Part shown: piece by piece, positions 51,001-63,000 of the stretch
Layout: each line of letters starts with the position of its first letter
Numbering within the stretch: position 1 is the stretch's first letter
NCBI GenBank assembly: GCA_028715415.1
Contig: JAQURX010000001.1
Location: 24,386 to 88,385, forward strand
Length of the DNA: 64,000 nt
Origin: Candidatus Omnitrophota bacterium
GTDB lineage: Bacteria; Omnitrophota; Gorgyraeia; Gygaellales; Profunditerraquicolaceae
Reading direction: 5' to 3'
Program-made: the position numbers

Positions 51001-54000
51001 GCTGCTGCAAAGGTCGGTGTGTTGTATCCGCCACTAGGTTTATGCTACTTATCTTCTTATTTGAAATCCGCAGGCCATGAAGTTAGCCTTATGGATTGCG
51101 AGGCGCAGAGTTATATTTTAAAGGATATTATAAGTGAGATATCGAAGTTTAAGCCGGATGCTGTCGGTATTAGGTGTGTATCTCCAGAGTGGAAAACTAT
51201 CAAAAAAATTTCTGAGGAAATTCGTAAGAATTTTAATAGGCTTCCAATTATTCTTGGTGGCCCTCATATTACCAATGTAAGAATACAGGCTTTTGAGGAT
51301 ATAGATTTTGATTTTGGTATTTGCGGAGAATCCGAGTTTTCTATAGTTAATTTGGTTAATTCGCTATACGACTCAAGGGCATGGCCTACAATCCCTGGTT
51401 TAATCTGGAAAAAAGACGGCAGTATTAGGGAAAATCAAAACGGGGCCAGGTTAGATAATATCGATACAATTTTATTCCCCGACCGCAGTATTCTTAATAA
51501 AGATAATTATCTGTGGAGTGTTCCAAAGAAAGGCATATGTAGGTTTACAACAATTTTAACCTCTAGGGGTTGCCCGTTCAGGTGTACATTTTGTTCTCAG
51601 GAAAAAATGTTTGGTGGAAAAGTTCGTTTACGTTCACCAGAGAACTCAGTTGATGAAATAGAGGGTTTTTACCGTGAAAATTTAATTGATCATTTTATCT
51701 TTGTTGATGATACTCTTACTATGGATAAGGATAGGGTGTATCGTATTTGCGATAGTATTAAGAATAGAAAGTTACGCATAACATGGGAAGGGTGGACTCA
51801 TGCAACTACGGTTGATAAGGATATTTTGAAAGCGATGAAAGACGCCGGGCTTGTTAGGCTATCATTTGGCATAGAAAGCGGTAATGAAGAGGTTCTAAAG
51901 TCACTCAGAAAAGGAACTACCCTAAAACAAATCCGGCAAGTTTACGAATGGGCAAAAGACGTAGGGTTGGAAACCAGAGGATCAGTGATTTTTGGTTTAC
52001 CGGGTGAAACAAGAAAGACGGTAAGGCAGACTCTGGATTTTGTTAAAAGTATAAAAGGCCTGGATCAAGCATATTTTAATATCGCAATGCCTTATCCTGG
52101 TACTGAAATGCGTAGGCAAGCTTTAAACGGAGAAATGGGTGTTTCCCTTCTTACTGAAGAATATGCTGAATTAAGGCGGCATGGAAATGTTGTTATGAAG
52201 GTTAATGATTTAGATCCAAAATATCTTATTAATTTTCAGAGAAGGGCGTGGCGAGAGTTTTATTTTGCTCCGCGGAGATTGCTTTATAATTTTTTTAGAG
52301 CAGGCGTTAAAGCTGGGATAATAAATAGTATTGCTTTTATTAAAAGTTTTATTTTGCCAGTTAATAAAGGGCAAAAAAATTAGGAGAATAAGATGACTCC
52401 CGATAAAGTAATTTCTAATGTGGATTTTTCAATTATTGTTCCTTTGTATAATGAAGAAGAAGGCGTTTCTGCAACAGTTAATTCATTAATTGATTTAAGA
52501 AGTAAACATTCTTTAAAATGTGAGATTATTTTAGTCAATGATGGCTCTACCGATAAAACATCGGAAATTATTAAAGAGTTTGCCACTGTGCCAAATTTTA
52601 AGATTTTAAGAAATACTGTTAACTTGGGCTATGGTTATTCGCTTAAGCGCGGCATCTTGATTGCCGAGTCTGATATTATATGCATTATTGATGCTGACGG
52701 TAGTTATCCTATTGAAAGCATCCCTGAGTTAATCTTTAATATGAAAGATTATGATATGGTTGTAGGGGCGCGACAGGGAGAACACTATTGGGGTTCAATC
52801 TTCAAGAACCCTAGTAGAAAATTGTTTTTGGCAATGATTCATTATATCACCGGAGTAAAGGTTCCAGACGGAAATTCTGGCTTAAGAGCGTTCAGAAAGA
52901 GCAAGATTATGGAATTCATCAATCTTATTGGTAATAAATTCTCTTTTACTACTTCTCTTACTTTGGCATCTCATTATAGCAATTTGGCTATTAAGTATAT
53001 TCCTGTTGAGTACTATAAGAGAAAAGGAAAAACCAAGATCCGGCATATTCGTGATTCTATCGGAGCGATTCAGCTTATGTTGCAAGTATCAGTGTATTTT
53101 GATCCTTTTAAAGTTGTTTTCCCTATTACTGTATTATTTGGCAGCATAGGTTTTTTATTTATCGTCAGCTATTTCTTTAATCAAAATCATTTTTTGGTGT
53201 TACTGGGATTCTTGAATATCTTTTTTTCTATTAGTGTTTTATTTTTCGGTTTATGGGCATGGTTGTTCGTTACTTCACAAAAGAATAAATTAGATTATGC
53301 CAAAAAAAATTAATGTTCTTTTAGTCGTTCCTCCAACGTATGAAGATATTTACGGAAACTCTTTTATCAGAGCAGGAGTGAATCCGGCTTACATGGTATT
53401 AAGCTATCCGGTTATTTCCGGATTGTTGAGAAATGAGAGTTATTTTGTTAAGGTTGCTGATTTAAATGCTACTGTTTCCCCACGGGCTAATTTTGAGGCT
53501 ATCCTTAAAGAATCTCCTTGGGATATTATTGGTTTCAATGTTACGACGCCAATTTTTAAAAAAGTCGAGGAGTATAGCAGGATTGCAAAAAACATTTTGC
53601 CTAAAAGTACTATAGTTGCAGGAGGGCCTCATGTTTCTGTTGCGGCGGAAGAAGTATTACGTTCTAGCTGCGTTGATATTGCAGTAATAGGAGAAGGTGA
53701 TTTTTCTTTTAAGATGGTAGTAGATGGCGAACATTTAAATAGCATTCCCGGTATAGCTTATTTAAATAATGGTGTTTTTAATGCAAATCCTTCTTCTAAC
53801 ATTGATAATCTAGATGATCTACCTATGCCTTATATGGAGGTTTTAGATTCTAAGTCTTATGTCCACCCAAGGCTTGTTTCCAGACGTAATCCAGTAGCAA
53901 GTATGGAGTCTAGCCGTGGATGTTTTGGAAGGTGTATATTTTGCAATAAAAGCGTTTTTGGCCCTAAAATACGTTTCAAAAGCGAGAAACGCGTTCTTGA

Positions 54001-60000: not shown

Positions 60001-63000
60001 AAAAGAGAATTTTTTTAATTTTGTAGATTTAAATGCGATAGTTGTGGGAGAAGGAGAAGAAACGTTACCGGAGTTTTTAGATGTGCTCTCAAAAGGCGGA
60101 AATTTAGATACTGTCAGGGGTTTGATATGGAAAGACAAAAAAAACGGGAAAGTTAGAATTAATCCACATAGAGAGTTGATAAAGGATTTGGATTGCCTGC
60201 CAATGGCTAATTATGAAGCTTTTGGGGTTGAGTCAATGGATATATATCCTATAGTAACTAGTAGAGGTTGTCCGCATAATTGTTCATTTTGCAGTAAATA
60301 TACCAGTCAGTCTTGGAGGCCTAGGGATTTGGGAAAGTGTTTAGATGAGCTTATCTATGCTAAGAATAGGTATGGTTTAAAGAGTTTTTTAGTCTGGGAT
60401 TCATGTTTTAATGTTTATCCTAAGAGAATTGAGGAATTCTGCAATTTATTGGTTACAAATAAGATTGATCTGCCTTGGGTTGCAATGGGGGTTAGGGCTG
60501 ACAAAATAACTGAAGGCATGGCCCGGGCTTTGAAAAAAGCTAACTGCAGGACTATTTGGGTAGGCATAGAAAGTTTTGATCAAGAAGTTTTAGAAGCTAT
60601 TGGGAAAGGTGAAGATGTCGAGCAAATAGTAAAGGGGATAAAGATAGCCAAGAGATCAAAATTGGGTATTTACGGTTTTATGATTATGGGTTTGCCGAAA
60701 GATACTTTCAAAAAAACTATCAAATCTCTTAATGTCGCTTTAAGCTTAAATCTCGACAGGCTGTTTTATGCATCCGCCGTCCCGTTTACAGGTACAAGGC
60801 TTTATGAGTGGGTTAAGAATAATGGTACTTTTATTAATGATCCTTTTGCTACATCTCAGATACTTCATAAAAGTAAAGAATCGGTAGCTTTTGAGACAAA
60901 AGATTTTCCCAAAGAAGAAAGGCTTAAGGCAAAAAAGATAATTAATATTAAGACAGGTTTTTATGAAAATCCGGGTTTTCCAAATTGGTTTTTCTTTTTT
61001 GTAAAAGTATATTTAATTTTAAGGCATGATTTGAATAATTCAATTAGGAGGCTCGTGCGCTCATTTAAATACAGGGCTCGTAAGAAAACAGCTATCGAGA
61101 CTATTATGGAAAAAAGAACCATTAAATTTAAGCATGTTCCTGATGGAACTTGGATTTTCCCAAGTCCTAAATTAGAAGAAAATGTTTCTAGCGTGGAAAT
61201 TTATTATAGAGATTTAGCTAATGAAAAAATAAGGAAGCAGTAGGCGTGAATACGATAAAGTCTGATGTAAAATCGGTTCCGGCAGATTACAGTTTGCTAG
61301 TAGCAACTAATTTTTTAATTTGCTTATTTTCAATCGTTATCACTTCTATGCTTACCCGGATGATGGATGCCGCCAGTTACGGCGTTTATAGTGTTTTTAT
61401 ATTTGCAACTCAGACTTTACTGCTTTTTAGTTCAACATGGATTATAAGTTCAATTGTTAGATTTGGCAGGGAGGAGTTTGACAAGACTGCAAAGGTTTCA
61501 AGAATTTTTTGGGCTTATGCATTAGTTGTCTGCGTTATGTTTGGACTTAGCTCATTAGTTGTTGTTGCGTTAAGAGAGGGAGTGTCTAAGTATATCGGTA
61601 TAACCAAACAAGAGATCTGGATTTTATTGACGTATGTTTTCTTGCTTTTAATAAGCACTTCACTTTTGAGTATATATCAAGCAACAAGAAAACTAAAAAT
61701 CTACGGAATTCTCCAAGTACTTGAGAAGTTTGTGCTCTTGCTAATCTTAAGTTTTCTTTATGTCTATTATCATAGACTTTCTGTTCAGCTGCTTTTATAT
61801 TCATTCTTAATTAGTTCAGGGATATTTGTTTCAATAAATATTATTATTACAAAAAAAGATATCTTAATCCCTGTTAAGTTTAGAAAAAACGACCTAAAGG
61901 AGCTTTTAATATTTTCTGGGCCATTATTTATTTCAGTAGGTACTGCTCATTTTGGGATGTGGATAAGCCCGATTCTAATCAATAATTTCTTGACTAAAGA
62001 TCAGCTAGGTACTTATTATTTAGCTCATCAAATAAATTTTCTTGTTGGCTCAACTATTTTGCAGTTAAGTATTGCACTTACTCCTATATTAGTGCTTTTG
62101 TACTCAAGGAAAAAAATCGATTTAATTGATTTATACGTAAGGAAGTTAGTCCCTTTAGGTGTTTTTGTGTGGGCGATTATTGTTGCATTAACAATGGTTG
62201 TTTCTAAATTACTTTTTTTACATTTATTTGGCAAAAACTTTGTCTTTGCATTAAATCCTTTGCAAGTATTATTGTTAGGAACTGGTTTTGCCGGTATACA
62301 TGTTTTGTTCGCGGGAGTGCTTACGGCCTATAAATTTACTTGGGCTTCAACAAAGGCATCTCTTATCTATATTTTCACTAATTTATTGGGGAATATTATT
62401 TTGATTAAGTTTTTTGGTATTCTTGGAGCGGCTATTGCTACATGCATTGCTTCGATTGCTTACAGTATTTCTATTATGCTAGAAACCCATAAAGTAACAA
62501 AGTTTAAATTTTCTTTAATAGTGTTTAATGTTATTCCTGTATTTTTTAGTTTTTTGATTGTTTTTTGCATCAAAGGCGTTATCGCTACCATCGTTATAAG
62601 TTTTATAATGTTTATTGGTTTAGTAATTGTTATTAAAAGATTCTTTTTGGATAAGGATTTAGTTACTGTTTTAAGCAAATTAGAGTTTCCTGGCTGGACA
62701 ATTGATTTTATTAGAAGAAGGCTTGCTAATTGATAGAGTGTGTGTATGAGTCAGAAATATAAAATAATCCACCTTAAAAATGGGGCTTATGAAGCCTGTA
62801 TAATTAAAAGAAACGCCTTGAATCGCGTACTTTCTATGCATTTGAACCATTTATTTGAGAAGGTATATATCGTTTTTTTTAAGGCGGATTCTAACAAATT
62901 AATCAATGTAGGCCCGGACTGTACTATCTTTGATATATCCGGTTTTGGGTCGTTATTTTCTAAACTTAAGCTGAAATTCTTGGATTCTTTCTTTTCAGAA

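Follow-up and report, generated by a model that had tools for sequence, protein, structure and literature searches.

In this study, we analysed a stretch of 64,000 nt (hereafter the window) from an uncultured Candidatus Omnitrophota bacterium (assembly GCA_028715415.1, contig JAQURX010000001.1, positions 24,386 to 88,385 of the forward strand) and found in its 3′ part the half of a Wzx-dependent locus for a surface glycan that is devoted to tailoring; in it, genes for radical S-adenosylmethionine (rSAM) proteins with a B12-binding domain are interspersed with genes for class I S-adenosylmethionine (SAM) methyltransferases. The conserved core of this region comprises a polytopic membrane protein (u602), an AsnB-like amidotransferase, the rSAM protein R5, a GtrB/ArnC-like family 2 glycosyltransferase (GT2), the rSAM protein R6, and a class I methyltransferase (MTB). 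The best explanation of this gene set, which we hold with moderate confidence, is that a sugar carried on polyprenyl phosphate would be tailored by radical chemistry and methylation and then transferred by a glycosyltransferase of the GT-C class. The genes concerned are listed below with their positions in the window.

47222..49030, + strand: u602, a membrane protein with 11 transmembrane segments, probably a divergent GT-C enzyme (PMT_2/ArnT-like), from hydropathy, the PMT_2 matches of its relatives, and hhalign
49046..50950, + strand: AsnB-like glutamine amidotransferase (Pfam Asn_synthase and GATase_7; NCBIfam asn_synth_AEB)
50947..52383, + strand: R5, B12-domain rSAM protein (Pfam; motif CPFRCTFC)
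52393..53313, + strand: GT2, a GtrB/ArnC/DPMS-like candidate polyprenyl-phosphate sugar synthase (Pfam Glycos_transf_2)
53297..54706, + strand: R6, B12-domain rSAM protein (Pfam B12-binding and Radical_SAM; motif CFGRCIFC)
54714..55721, + strand: MTB, a Trm112-like Cys4 ribbon joined to a class I SAM methyltransferase (Pfam)
55705..57273, + strand: R7, B12-domain rSAM protein (Pfam; motif CPHRCAFC)
57289..58230, + strand: MTC, class I SAM methyltransferase with no ribbon (Pfam)
58264..59700, + strand: R8, B12-domain rSAM protein (Pfam)
59702..61243, + strand: R9, B12-domain rSAM protein, the most divergent of the nine in the window (Pfam; motif CPHNCSFC)
61246..62733, + strand: Wzx-type flippase at the end of the module (Pfam Polysacc_synt; 10 hydrophobic segments)

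The gene content of the window was read from Pfam scans, which revealed two glycan loci with housekeeping genes between them and, in total, nine B12-type rSAM proteins and three methyltransferases. The second locus runs from rmlA (42231) past the end of the window in the order RmlA, RmlD-like, RmlB-like, a 346-aa protein, MBOAT, u602, AsnB, R5, GT2, R6, MTB, R7, MTC, R8, R9, Wzx, and a family 4 glycosyltransferase (GT4). The operon is tightly packed on the + strand, with intergenic gaps of −17 to +33 nt; the AsnB stop and the R5 start overlap by 4 nt, and the end of GT2 and the start of R6 by 17 nt. The initial annotation had described, at 53297–61243, the order rSAM, methyltransferase, rSAM, methyltransferase, rSAM, rSAM, with a zinc ribbon in the first methyltransferase, and had placed these genes as plausible tailoring enzymes in a glycan locus. 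The Pfam domains of R6, MTB, R7, MTC, R8, and R9 confirm this order, and the surrounding gene content agrees with the setting. That interval cuts the operon on its left, where R5 and GT2 sit immediately upstream. The start of R7 is more likely the ATG at 55723, which lies 1 nt past the MTB stop, than the one at 55705.

An alignment of the R6 family was scanned over one genome per species and returned 78 loci, which are given ‘L’ numbers below where they have to be told apart. The R6 family is large and orthologous, with proteins of about 467 aa that share 37–66% identity across many phyla. Clear R6 orthologues (37–52% identity) were present in 38 of the 78 loci, from Omnitrophota, Acidobacteriota, Planctomycetota, Elusimicrobia, Nitrospirae, Thermodesulfobacteriota, and Brocadiaceae, and also from metagenome-assembled genomes (MAGs) of Nanoarchaeota, Woesearchaeota, and Methanosarcinales; the GT2-linked triad was found in bacterial phyla only. 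A GT2 gene lies directly beside the R6 orthologue in 18 of these 38 loci (15 downstream), and a class I methyltransferase gene in 12 (10 upstream), or in 16 when two genes on either side are considered. In at least 14 loci the GT2 beside the R6 orthologue is itself an orthologue of the window GT2, with 32–59% identity over about 280 residues, and these proteins end in two or three C-terminal hydrophobic helices. An R5-like rSAM protein (34–37% identity) is encoded on the far side of GT2 in L020, L025, L030, and L043, and an AsnB gene followed by a methyltransferase gene stands ahead of R6 in L011, L012, and L043. The closest relative, L002, reads AsnB, R5 (74% identity), GT2 (59%), R6 (66%), a zinc-ribbon methyltransferase, and MTB (60%). 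Over the 78 loci, 35 GT2–rSAM junctions were counted against 23.1 ± 3.8 expected, a number reached in 5 of 2000 shuffled gene orders. At least two rSAM genes were present in 20 of the 22 long loci with an R6 orthologue, at least three in 12, and at least two recognisable glycan genes in 17; runs of rSAM genes reach five (L055). Of all partners of R6, the upstream GT2 is the one conserved most widely, and the idea that MTB is the prime partner of R6 did not hold. The linkage of one particular B12-type rSAM family to a polyprenyl-phosphate-type GT2 and a GT-C partner is widespread and uncharacterised, and it provides a concrete hypothesis for the substrate of the R6 family, namely a polyprenyl-phosphate sugar.

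The window GT2 matches PF00535 and carries two hydrophobic helices at residues 238–296. Its top seven matches in a PDB sequence search were GtrB (sll0501), ArnC, and dolichol-phosphate mannose synthase (DPMS), and its top NCBIfam matches were AglJ, ArnC, PgfS, and a dolichol-phosphate hexose transferase, all under their cutoffs. By domain, helices, and closest relatives, GT2 resembles the polyprenyl-phosphate sugar synthases and is a candidate member of that group. A hydropathy scan gave 11 hydrophobic segments for u602, whose family is very rare, with 18 relatives at E ≤ 0.001 among 1.84 billion clustered representatives. Eight of the ten relatives tested match PMT_2, four of them above the gathering score, and hhalign gave an 82.8% probability to a PMT_2-positive family that stands beside rSAM–GT2 modules elsewhere. 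Polytopic proteins of about 500–600 aa beside the modules in other genomes are of the PMT_2/PMT type (41.9, 53.2, and 29.5 bits, gathering score 26.1), and precomputed Pfam assignments also place PMT_2 beside the modules of L096, L097, and L098. The AsnB-like protein scores 449 bits with asn_synth_AEB (cutoff 267), and AsnB recurs beside the modules in L002, L011, L012, L043, and L096.

Two other large polytopic proteins are encoded in the first locus, u615 (18478–20325) and u684 (23618–25672), with 7 and 14 hydrophobic segments, respectively. Neither has a Pfam or NCBIfam match; u684 gave a 69% hhalign probability to a PMT_2-positive family, and both may be further GT-C enzymes or polymerases. 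BLAST and hmmsearch detected no direct homology between u602, u615, or u684 and the membrane proteins of related loci.

The initial annotation had also pointed to an earlier rSAM gene followed by a gene for a Cys4-ribbon methyltransferase at 13446–15834, and had taken the two occurrences as a two-gene cassette duplicated within one locus. The earlier pair is real (R3 and MTA). It belongs to the first glycan locus, whose rSAM and methyltransferase genes are as follows.

4104..5570, + strand: R1, B12-domain rSAM protein with an atypical CX4CX2C motif (Pfam, motif scan)
9845..11224, + strand: R2, B12-domain rSAM protein (Pfam, motif scan)
13446..14960, + strand: R3, B12-domain rSAM protein of the earlier pair (Pfam)
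14929..15834, + strand: MTA, a Cys4 ribbon joined to a Methyltransf_23 methyltransferase (Pfam)
17005..18462, + strand: R4, B12-domain rSAM protein (Pfam, motif scan)

MTA probably starts at the ATG at 14962, one base past the R3 stop. The nine rSAM proteins of the window are mutually 23–32% identical in pairwise comparison. R3 and R6 share 28.9% identity (139 bits), a match weaker than R3–R5 (189 bits), R3–R8, R6–R5 (180 bits), and R6–R8, and are not mutual best paralogues. The alignment of MTA with MTB is confined to 110 residues of the Rossmann core (26% identity, E 0.003, 25.8 bits), and the other two methyltransferase pairs both match more strongly. For all nine rSAM proteins the best match in the loci of other genomes exceeds the best paralogue in the window (R5, 74%; R6, 66%; R3, 61%; R8, 57%; R1, 50%). 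A neighbour-joining tree of 145 sequences (capped distances, 100 bootstraps) contains no sister pair of window paralogues. R1, R5, R6, R7, and R8 each have a nearest clade made up entirely of sequences from other genomes, with 100% support, and a grouping of R3 with R6 that leaves out the other window paralogues appeared in 3 of 100 bootstraps. Recent duplication was therefore rejected on the pairwise identities, the best-hit test, and the tree, and the rSAM and methyltransferase genes show no sign of co-duplication, which contradicts the duplicated cassette. Since closer relatives exist in other genomes and the tree holds no sister paralogues, the array comprises ancient lineages: old and distinct, they were brought together rather than generated by local duplication. 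For annotation, this means that the repetition of a domain pattern within a locus should not be taken as evidence of duplication.

The nearest relatives of R7 are from Streptosporangiaceae and Anaerolineaceae MAGs (100% bootstrap), the nearest relative of R1 is from a Nanoarchaeota MAG (L034; 50% identity, 100% bootstrap), and R3 groups with DPANN and Methanosarcinales sequences (L051, L054, L056, and L058, from Woesearchaeota and Methanosarcinales MAGs). The archaeal relatives of R1 and R3 suggest that rSAM genes of glycan loci have been exchanged between Omnitrophota and archaea living in the same habitats.

All three methyltransferase genes of the window touch an rSAM gene, giving five methyltransferase–rSAM junctions (p about 0.0005–0.001 by gene-order shuffling), so the pattern is real and non-random in this locus. 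A general adjacency of the two gene types across genomes was rejected, as it did not exceed chance over the 78 loci (25 junctions against 19.8 ± 3.7 expected, reached in 218 of 2000 shuffles). What recurs in close relatives is three specific pairs, R3–MTA, MTC–R8, and R6 with an MTB-like enzyme. A metagenome scan found a close relative of R3 in L087 only (58–61% identity), where it is followed by an MTA-like methyltransferase that is 38% identical to MTA and has the same ribbon. Because this is the one close R3 relative found, the conservation of R3–MTA rests on a single 1.9 kb contig. In L096, an Omnitrophota MAG locus, the gene for a 313-aa MTC orthologue (50% identity) stands ahead of the R8 orthologue (57%) and overlaps it by 4 nt, and Wzx and GT4 come next, the same order as in the window. 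This arrangement indicates that MTC belongs with R8 and not, as had been proposed, with R7, and that MTC–R8 is a second conserved pair. The methyltransferases upstream of R6 orthologues elsewhere are of about 258 aa, lack the ribbon, and share 24–30% identity over 250–280 residues with the core and C-terminal region of MTB. R7 and R9 have no demonstrated partner. Homologues of MTB (38–40% identity) adjoin AsnB in glycan loci without any rSAM gene, so MTB needs no rSAM partner; an obligate MTB–rSAM pairing was rejected on this ground.

Related loci contained further variants of these genes. The R8 orthologue of L096 (10001–12184; 57%) is a 727-aa fusion of a B12-type rSAM protein with a C-terminal GDSL/SGNH lipase-like domain, a hint that radical modification may be tied to the handling of O-acyl groups. 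L097, which comes from the same MAG and contig as the window and has no overlap with the window ends, encodes a tenth B12-type rSAM protein (P0292, 38% identical to R8), preceded with a 4-nt overlap by a zinc-ribbon methyltransferase; downstream come GT4, PMT_2, two methyltransferases, and a methyltransferase–GT2 fusion. With L097, this one genome has three glycan loci that carry rSAM genes. In L019, L024, and L028, all from Omnitrophota MAGs, methyltransferase fusions of about 580 aa lie directly upstream of the R6 orthologues. In a Pfam scan of one of the three, that of L019, Methyltransf_11/23 was found at the C-terminus, and the N-terminal part, about 350 aa long, gave only a faint polysaccharide-deacetylase signal.

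PF04055 and the B12-binding family PF02310 match all nine window rSAM proteins, the latter with E values of 1.5e-8 to 3e-21. The cluster motif is intact in all nine, in the canonical form CxxxCxxC in eight and as CX4CX2C (CWWGKCTFC) in R1. A GG(P/Y/I)H motif of the B12-like domain is present in seven of the eight rSAM proteins other than R9; the motif scan found no GGxH-type match in R1, and R9 has GGAE. As G109, G110, and H112 are invariant across the R6 family, the cofactor use of R9 may differ. Comparison with NCBIfam families including HpnJ, BchE, QCMT, PhpK, HpnR, KedN5, and AprD4 returned HpnJ and BchE as the best matches and, for R9, a lipid-biosynthesis B12/rSAM family (119 bits, cutoff 360). 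HpnJ was the best or second-best match for eight of the nine, R9 being the one left out (107–189 bits, cutoff 577.6). Naming the window proteins as a known B12-type rSAM family was rejected, as none passed an NCBIfam cutoff. In a PDB sequence search the closest solved structure was 9ccb (E 6e-23 and 1.5e-24), with AprD4 second; 9ccb is the B12-dependent glutamine C-methyltransferase MgmA/QCMT (PMC12931638). The AlphaFold2 model of R6 had a predicted local distance difference test score (pLDDT) of 91 and, after its best Foldseek match AprD4, was matched to MgmA (TM-scores 0.66/0.73), TsrM, CysS, TokK, and OxsB. From these sequence and model comparisons, the window rSAM proteins are most likely ‘class B methylases’; the label stays putative, since the R6 model fits the cobalamin-free AprD4 as well as MgmA, and a 2026 review offers no rule by which cobalamin binding or methylase activity could be read from sequence (PMC12931638).

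The zinc ribbon that had been noted in the first methyltransferase is also supported. The N-terminus of MTB contains CxxC…CxxC, and an alignment of 42 homologues shows the classic Trm112 consensus CPxC…CxxCxxxYPIxxGIPRF; MTB itself is below threshold for Trm112p (PF03966, 17.9 bits, gathering score 22) and for NCBIfam Trm112_arch (24.9, cutoff 77), and precomputed Pfam assignments place PF03966 in many of its homologues. In the AlphaFold2 model of MTB (pLDDT 94.7) an N-terminal beta-ribbon precedes the Rossmann fold. Foldseek matched this model to generic class I methyltransferases with TM-scores of 0.4–0.47, including the sugar O-methyltransferases RebM and AtmM, matches that do not inform on the substrate. 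The Hvo_0019–Trm112 complex (PDB 6f5z) was also among the structural matches. The MTB N-terminus follows the zinc-knuckle consensus of the Trm112 holoenzymes (Trm112 with Trm9, Trm11, Mtq2, Bud23, or Hvo_0019) and of the bacterial YbaR/UPF0434 fusions, but the MTB ribbon is fused in cis to a glycan-locus methyltransferase, whereas the partners of Trm112 are translation-related. The MTA ribbon has its four cysteines as two CxxC pairs and matches no Trm112 model. MTA (Methyltransf_23) and MTB (Methyltransf_11/25) belong to different subfamilies with different ribbon types.

The pathway that we propose would begin with the membrane-anchored GT2, which would place a sugar on polyprenyl phosphate at the cytoplasmic face, as ArnC, GtrB, and DPMS do. 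R5 and R6 would then act on the lipid-linked sugar by radical chemistry, most probably a C-methylation that depends on cobalamin, on the model of GenK, GenD1, and MoeK5, or alternatively a dehydration or rearrangement as with AprD4 or HpnJ. MTB would O- or N-methylate a hydroxyl or amino group, and AsnB would amidate a carboxyl group. The modified sugar would be flipped, and the GT-C-like u602 would transfer it at the outer face to the Wzx-exported glycan or to another envelope acceptor; MTC and R8 may form a second tailoring unit. It is a tentative proposal, and a doubtful one as it stands, that R5–GT2–R6 together with the methyltransferase, AsnB, and GT-C represents an undescribed and phylogenetically widespread pathway that tailors a polyprenyl-phosphate monosaccharide before GT-C enzymes install it at the cell surface. 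A bolder version draws on CysS, because a methyltransferase gene followed by an rSAM gene with a 4-nt overlap is a frequent order and CysS is among the matches of the R6 model: the class I methyltransferase would make an O-methyl group, which the B12-type rSAM protein would extend by radical chemistry to O-ethyl or O-isopropyl. If true, alkyl-ether or C-branched sugars not known so far from bacterial glycans would be expected.

Known systems provide precedents for the individual steps. In the Arn (ArnC, ArnD, ArnE/F, ArnT) and Gtr (GtrA, GtrB, GtrC) systems undecaprenyl phosphate receives a sugar, which may be modified before it is flipped and a GT-C enzyme transfers it. The window shares with them the GtrB/ArnC/DPMS signature of GT2 and the nearby PMT_2-type GT-C proteins (in relatives and, transitively, u602), whereas its tailoring enzymes are rSAM proteins, class I methyltransferases, and AsnB in place of a deformylase. 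In hopanoid synthesis, HpnI (a GT2), HpnK, and HpnJ (a B12-type rSAM protein) cooperate so that the rSAM enzyme remodels a lipid-linked amino sugar made by the GT2. The logic of GT2 followed by rSAM and the frequent HpnJ matches are alike, but none of the window rSAM proteins is an HpnJ orthologue, and the Pfam scans found no squalene–hopene cyclase or other hpn gene in the window. The Arn pathway and HpnI with HpnJ are the closest working analogies to the proposed pathway. The class B sugar rSAM methyltransferases GenK, GenD1, Fms7, and MoeK5 resemble the window proteins in their carbohydrate-modifying context and in the layout of an N-terminal B12-type Rossmann domain and a radical SAM TIM barrel with CxxxCxxC, and the window rSAM proteins match the class B structure 9ccb at E of about 1e-23. 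Those enzymes, however, are encoded in antibiotic clusters, whereas the window holds nine paralogues within 64 kb in a primary cell-surface glycan setting, and cobalamin binding and methyl transfer by these paralogues are putative. AprD4 (PDB 6fd2), the radical SAM 1,2-diol dehydratase of apramycin synthesis, has the two-domain layout of the R6 model and a sugar substrate; it differs in sequence (about 20% identity to R6) and in working without cobalamin, and no AprD3-like reductase partner was seen here.

Several observations weigh against a pathway of this kind, whose substrate, chemistry, and topology we infer. GT2 scores well under the equivalog cutoffs of AglJ (82 against 325) and ArnC (73 against 529), so its acceptor is a presumed one. 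No Pfam or NCBIfam match was found for u602, including PF13231 and PF02366 at E ≤ 1, and its probable assignment as a divergent GT-C enzyme is a transitive link made through its relatives. None of the nine rSAM proteins reaches the cutoff of a curated NCBIfam B12-type rSAM family (best scores 104–189 bits against 251–775; for R6, 186 against 577.6 with HpnJ and 126 against 360 with QCMT). In the Foldseek search, the R6 model was matched best, over its full length and with TM-scores of 0.79/0.81, by AprD4, a dehydratase and not a methylase, which lacks cobalamin (PMC12931638). Open reading frames in the other loci were labelled with home-made hidden Markov models of the window genes, which have limited sensitivity, and GT2 adjoins only about half of the R6 orthologues and a methyltransferase about a third, so no partner is obligatory. 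The literature searched contained no description of B12-type rSAM proteins in O-antigen, lipopolysaccharide (LPS), capsule, or polysaccharide loci or in Omnitrophota, and an Omnitrophota genome preprint names radical SAM solely as a Pfam module.

The AprD4 match bears most directly on the possibility that the rSAM proteins are not methylases but would carry out deoxygenation, epimerisation, oxidation, or ring contraction, either without cobalamin or with cobalamin in a redox role (as AprD4, HpnJ, and OxsB), all methyl groups being added by the methyltransferases. We consider this conceivable but rather improbable. It accords with the rank of AprD4 in both the structure and the PDB sequence searches, with the fact that neither HpnJ nor BchE is a methylase, with the Rossmann-like domain without cobalamin in AprD4 and ArsL (PMC12931638), and with the separate class I methyltransferases of the operon, which would cover all methylation; yet the AprD4 family model scores 27–113 bits over the nine proteins (96 for R6) against a cutoff of 500, the best PDB sequence match is the true B12 methylase MgmA, PF02310 is significant in every one of the nine, and no partner reductase such as AprD3 is evident beside the rSAM genes. 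Instead, the rSAM proteins and methyltransferases might have soluble nucleotide sugars as substrates, ahead of glycosyl transfer, or the finished polymer, with the adjacency to GT2 being mere co-regulation. The presence in the locus of RmlA, RmlB-like, and RmlD-like enzymes, which make nucleoside diphosphate (NDP)-6-deoxyhexoses, and the R6 orthologues without an adjacent GT2, about half of the total, are compatible with this; it appears unlikely, given the enrichment of the GT2–rSAM junction, the single orthologous lineage of membrane-anchored GT2 proteins, the overlapping start and stop codons that couple GT2 and R6, and the PMT_2 GT-C genes, users of lipid-linked donors, that accompany the modules.

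Successive C- and O/N-methylation of one glycan by a duplicated rSAM and zinc-ribbon methyltransferase cassette (R3–MTA, R6–MTB, then R7–MTC) would explain the gene order, both Cys4 ribbons, the above-chance adjacency of the two gene types in the window, and the recurrence of R3–MTA in L087. It is nevertheless very improbable in view of the low R3/R6 identity and bootstrap support, the closer relatives of all paralogues in other genomes, the short MTA/MTB alignment and unlike ribbons, the pairing of MTC with R8 in L096, and the chance level of methyltransferase–rSAM adjacency over the 78 loci. That the rSAM proteins modify lipids, be it the polyprenyl carrier or membrane lipids, has precedents in HpnP, HpnR, and the B12-type rSAM proteins of ladderane and tetraether synthesis; the lipid-biosynthesis family is the best match of R9, HpnR is among the matches, and a monogalactosyldiacylglycerol (MGDG) synthase gene is present at 34845. 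All these scores are far under the cutoffs, however, no lipid-synthesis genes are adjacent, and in nearly all loci with an R6 orthologue the neighbours are glycosyltransferases, flippases, polymerases or ligases, and NDP-sugar enzymes, which makes a lipid substrate extremely unlikely.

All of the 50-odd annotated open reading frames of at least 150 aa in the window are on the + strand, the G+C content is about 34%, and no tRNA or Rfam features were found. The first locus (about 1075–35969) contains a Wzx flippase, many glycosyltransferases of families GT2, GT4, and GT9, and an O-antigen-ligase-type Wzy_C protein, together with GDP-mannose dehydratase, carbamoyltransferase, ManC, and DegT aminotransferase genes and the B12-binding/radical SAM genes R1 (4104), R2 (9845), R3 (13446), and R4 (17005). 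At 6603–6866 (+ strand) it also encodes an 87-aa SemiSWEET/PQ-loop protein (MtN3_slv, 46.2 bits, cutoff 23.7). Such a three-helix unit of a sugar transporter is unusual in an LPS/O-antigen locus, and the protein is a possible small flippase. Between the loci lie PriA, Fmt, two GalT/HIT-like genes, and GAPDH; the GalT/HIT genes (38802–39827 and 39829–40824, + strand), between Fmt and GAPDH, are tandem paralogues of the galactose-1-phosphate uridylyltransferase-like type (DUF4921/DUF4931). PriA (35917–37776) flanks the glycan locus in the window and likewise in L011, from a distantly related Omnitrophota MAG (Omnitrophica WOR_2), which suggests that a variable island of surface-glycan genes occupies a conserved place in the chromosome. 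In the second locus, the MBOAT protein at 45918 is DltB-like (176 bits, under the NCBIfam cutoff of 375), and its 346-aa partner has a single helix and a faint SGNH signal. An MBOAT protein with an SGNH-type partner is the usual arrangement for glycan O-acylation.

To our knowledge, B12-type rSAM proteins are among the largest pools of enzymes without an assigned function, and nearly all of the few that are characterised belong to pathways for antibiotics, cofactors, or methanogenesis. That a glycan locus encodes tailoring enzymes is ordinary in itself; what the analysis adds is that one B12-type rSAM family, the R6-like one, is tied to a GtrB/ArnC-like GT2 in several bacterial phyla, often with a PMT_2 GT-C gene nearby. 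If the proposed pathway is correct, unusual sugars made by radical chemistry would be displayed on the surfaces of Omnitrophota and of other uncultured, often host-dependent anaerobes, in which surface glycans are likely mediators of cell–cell contact.

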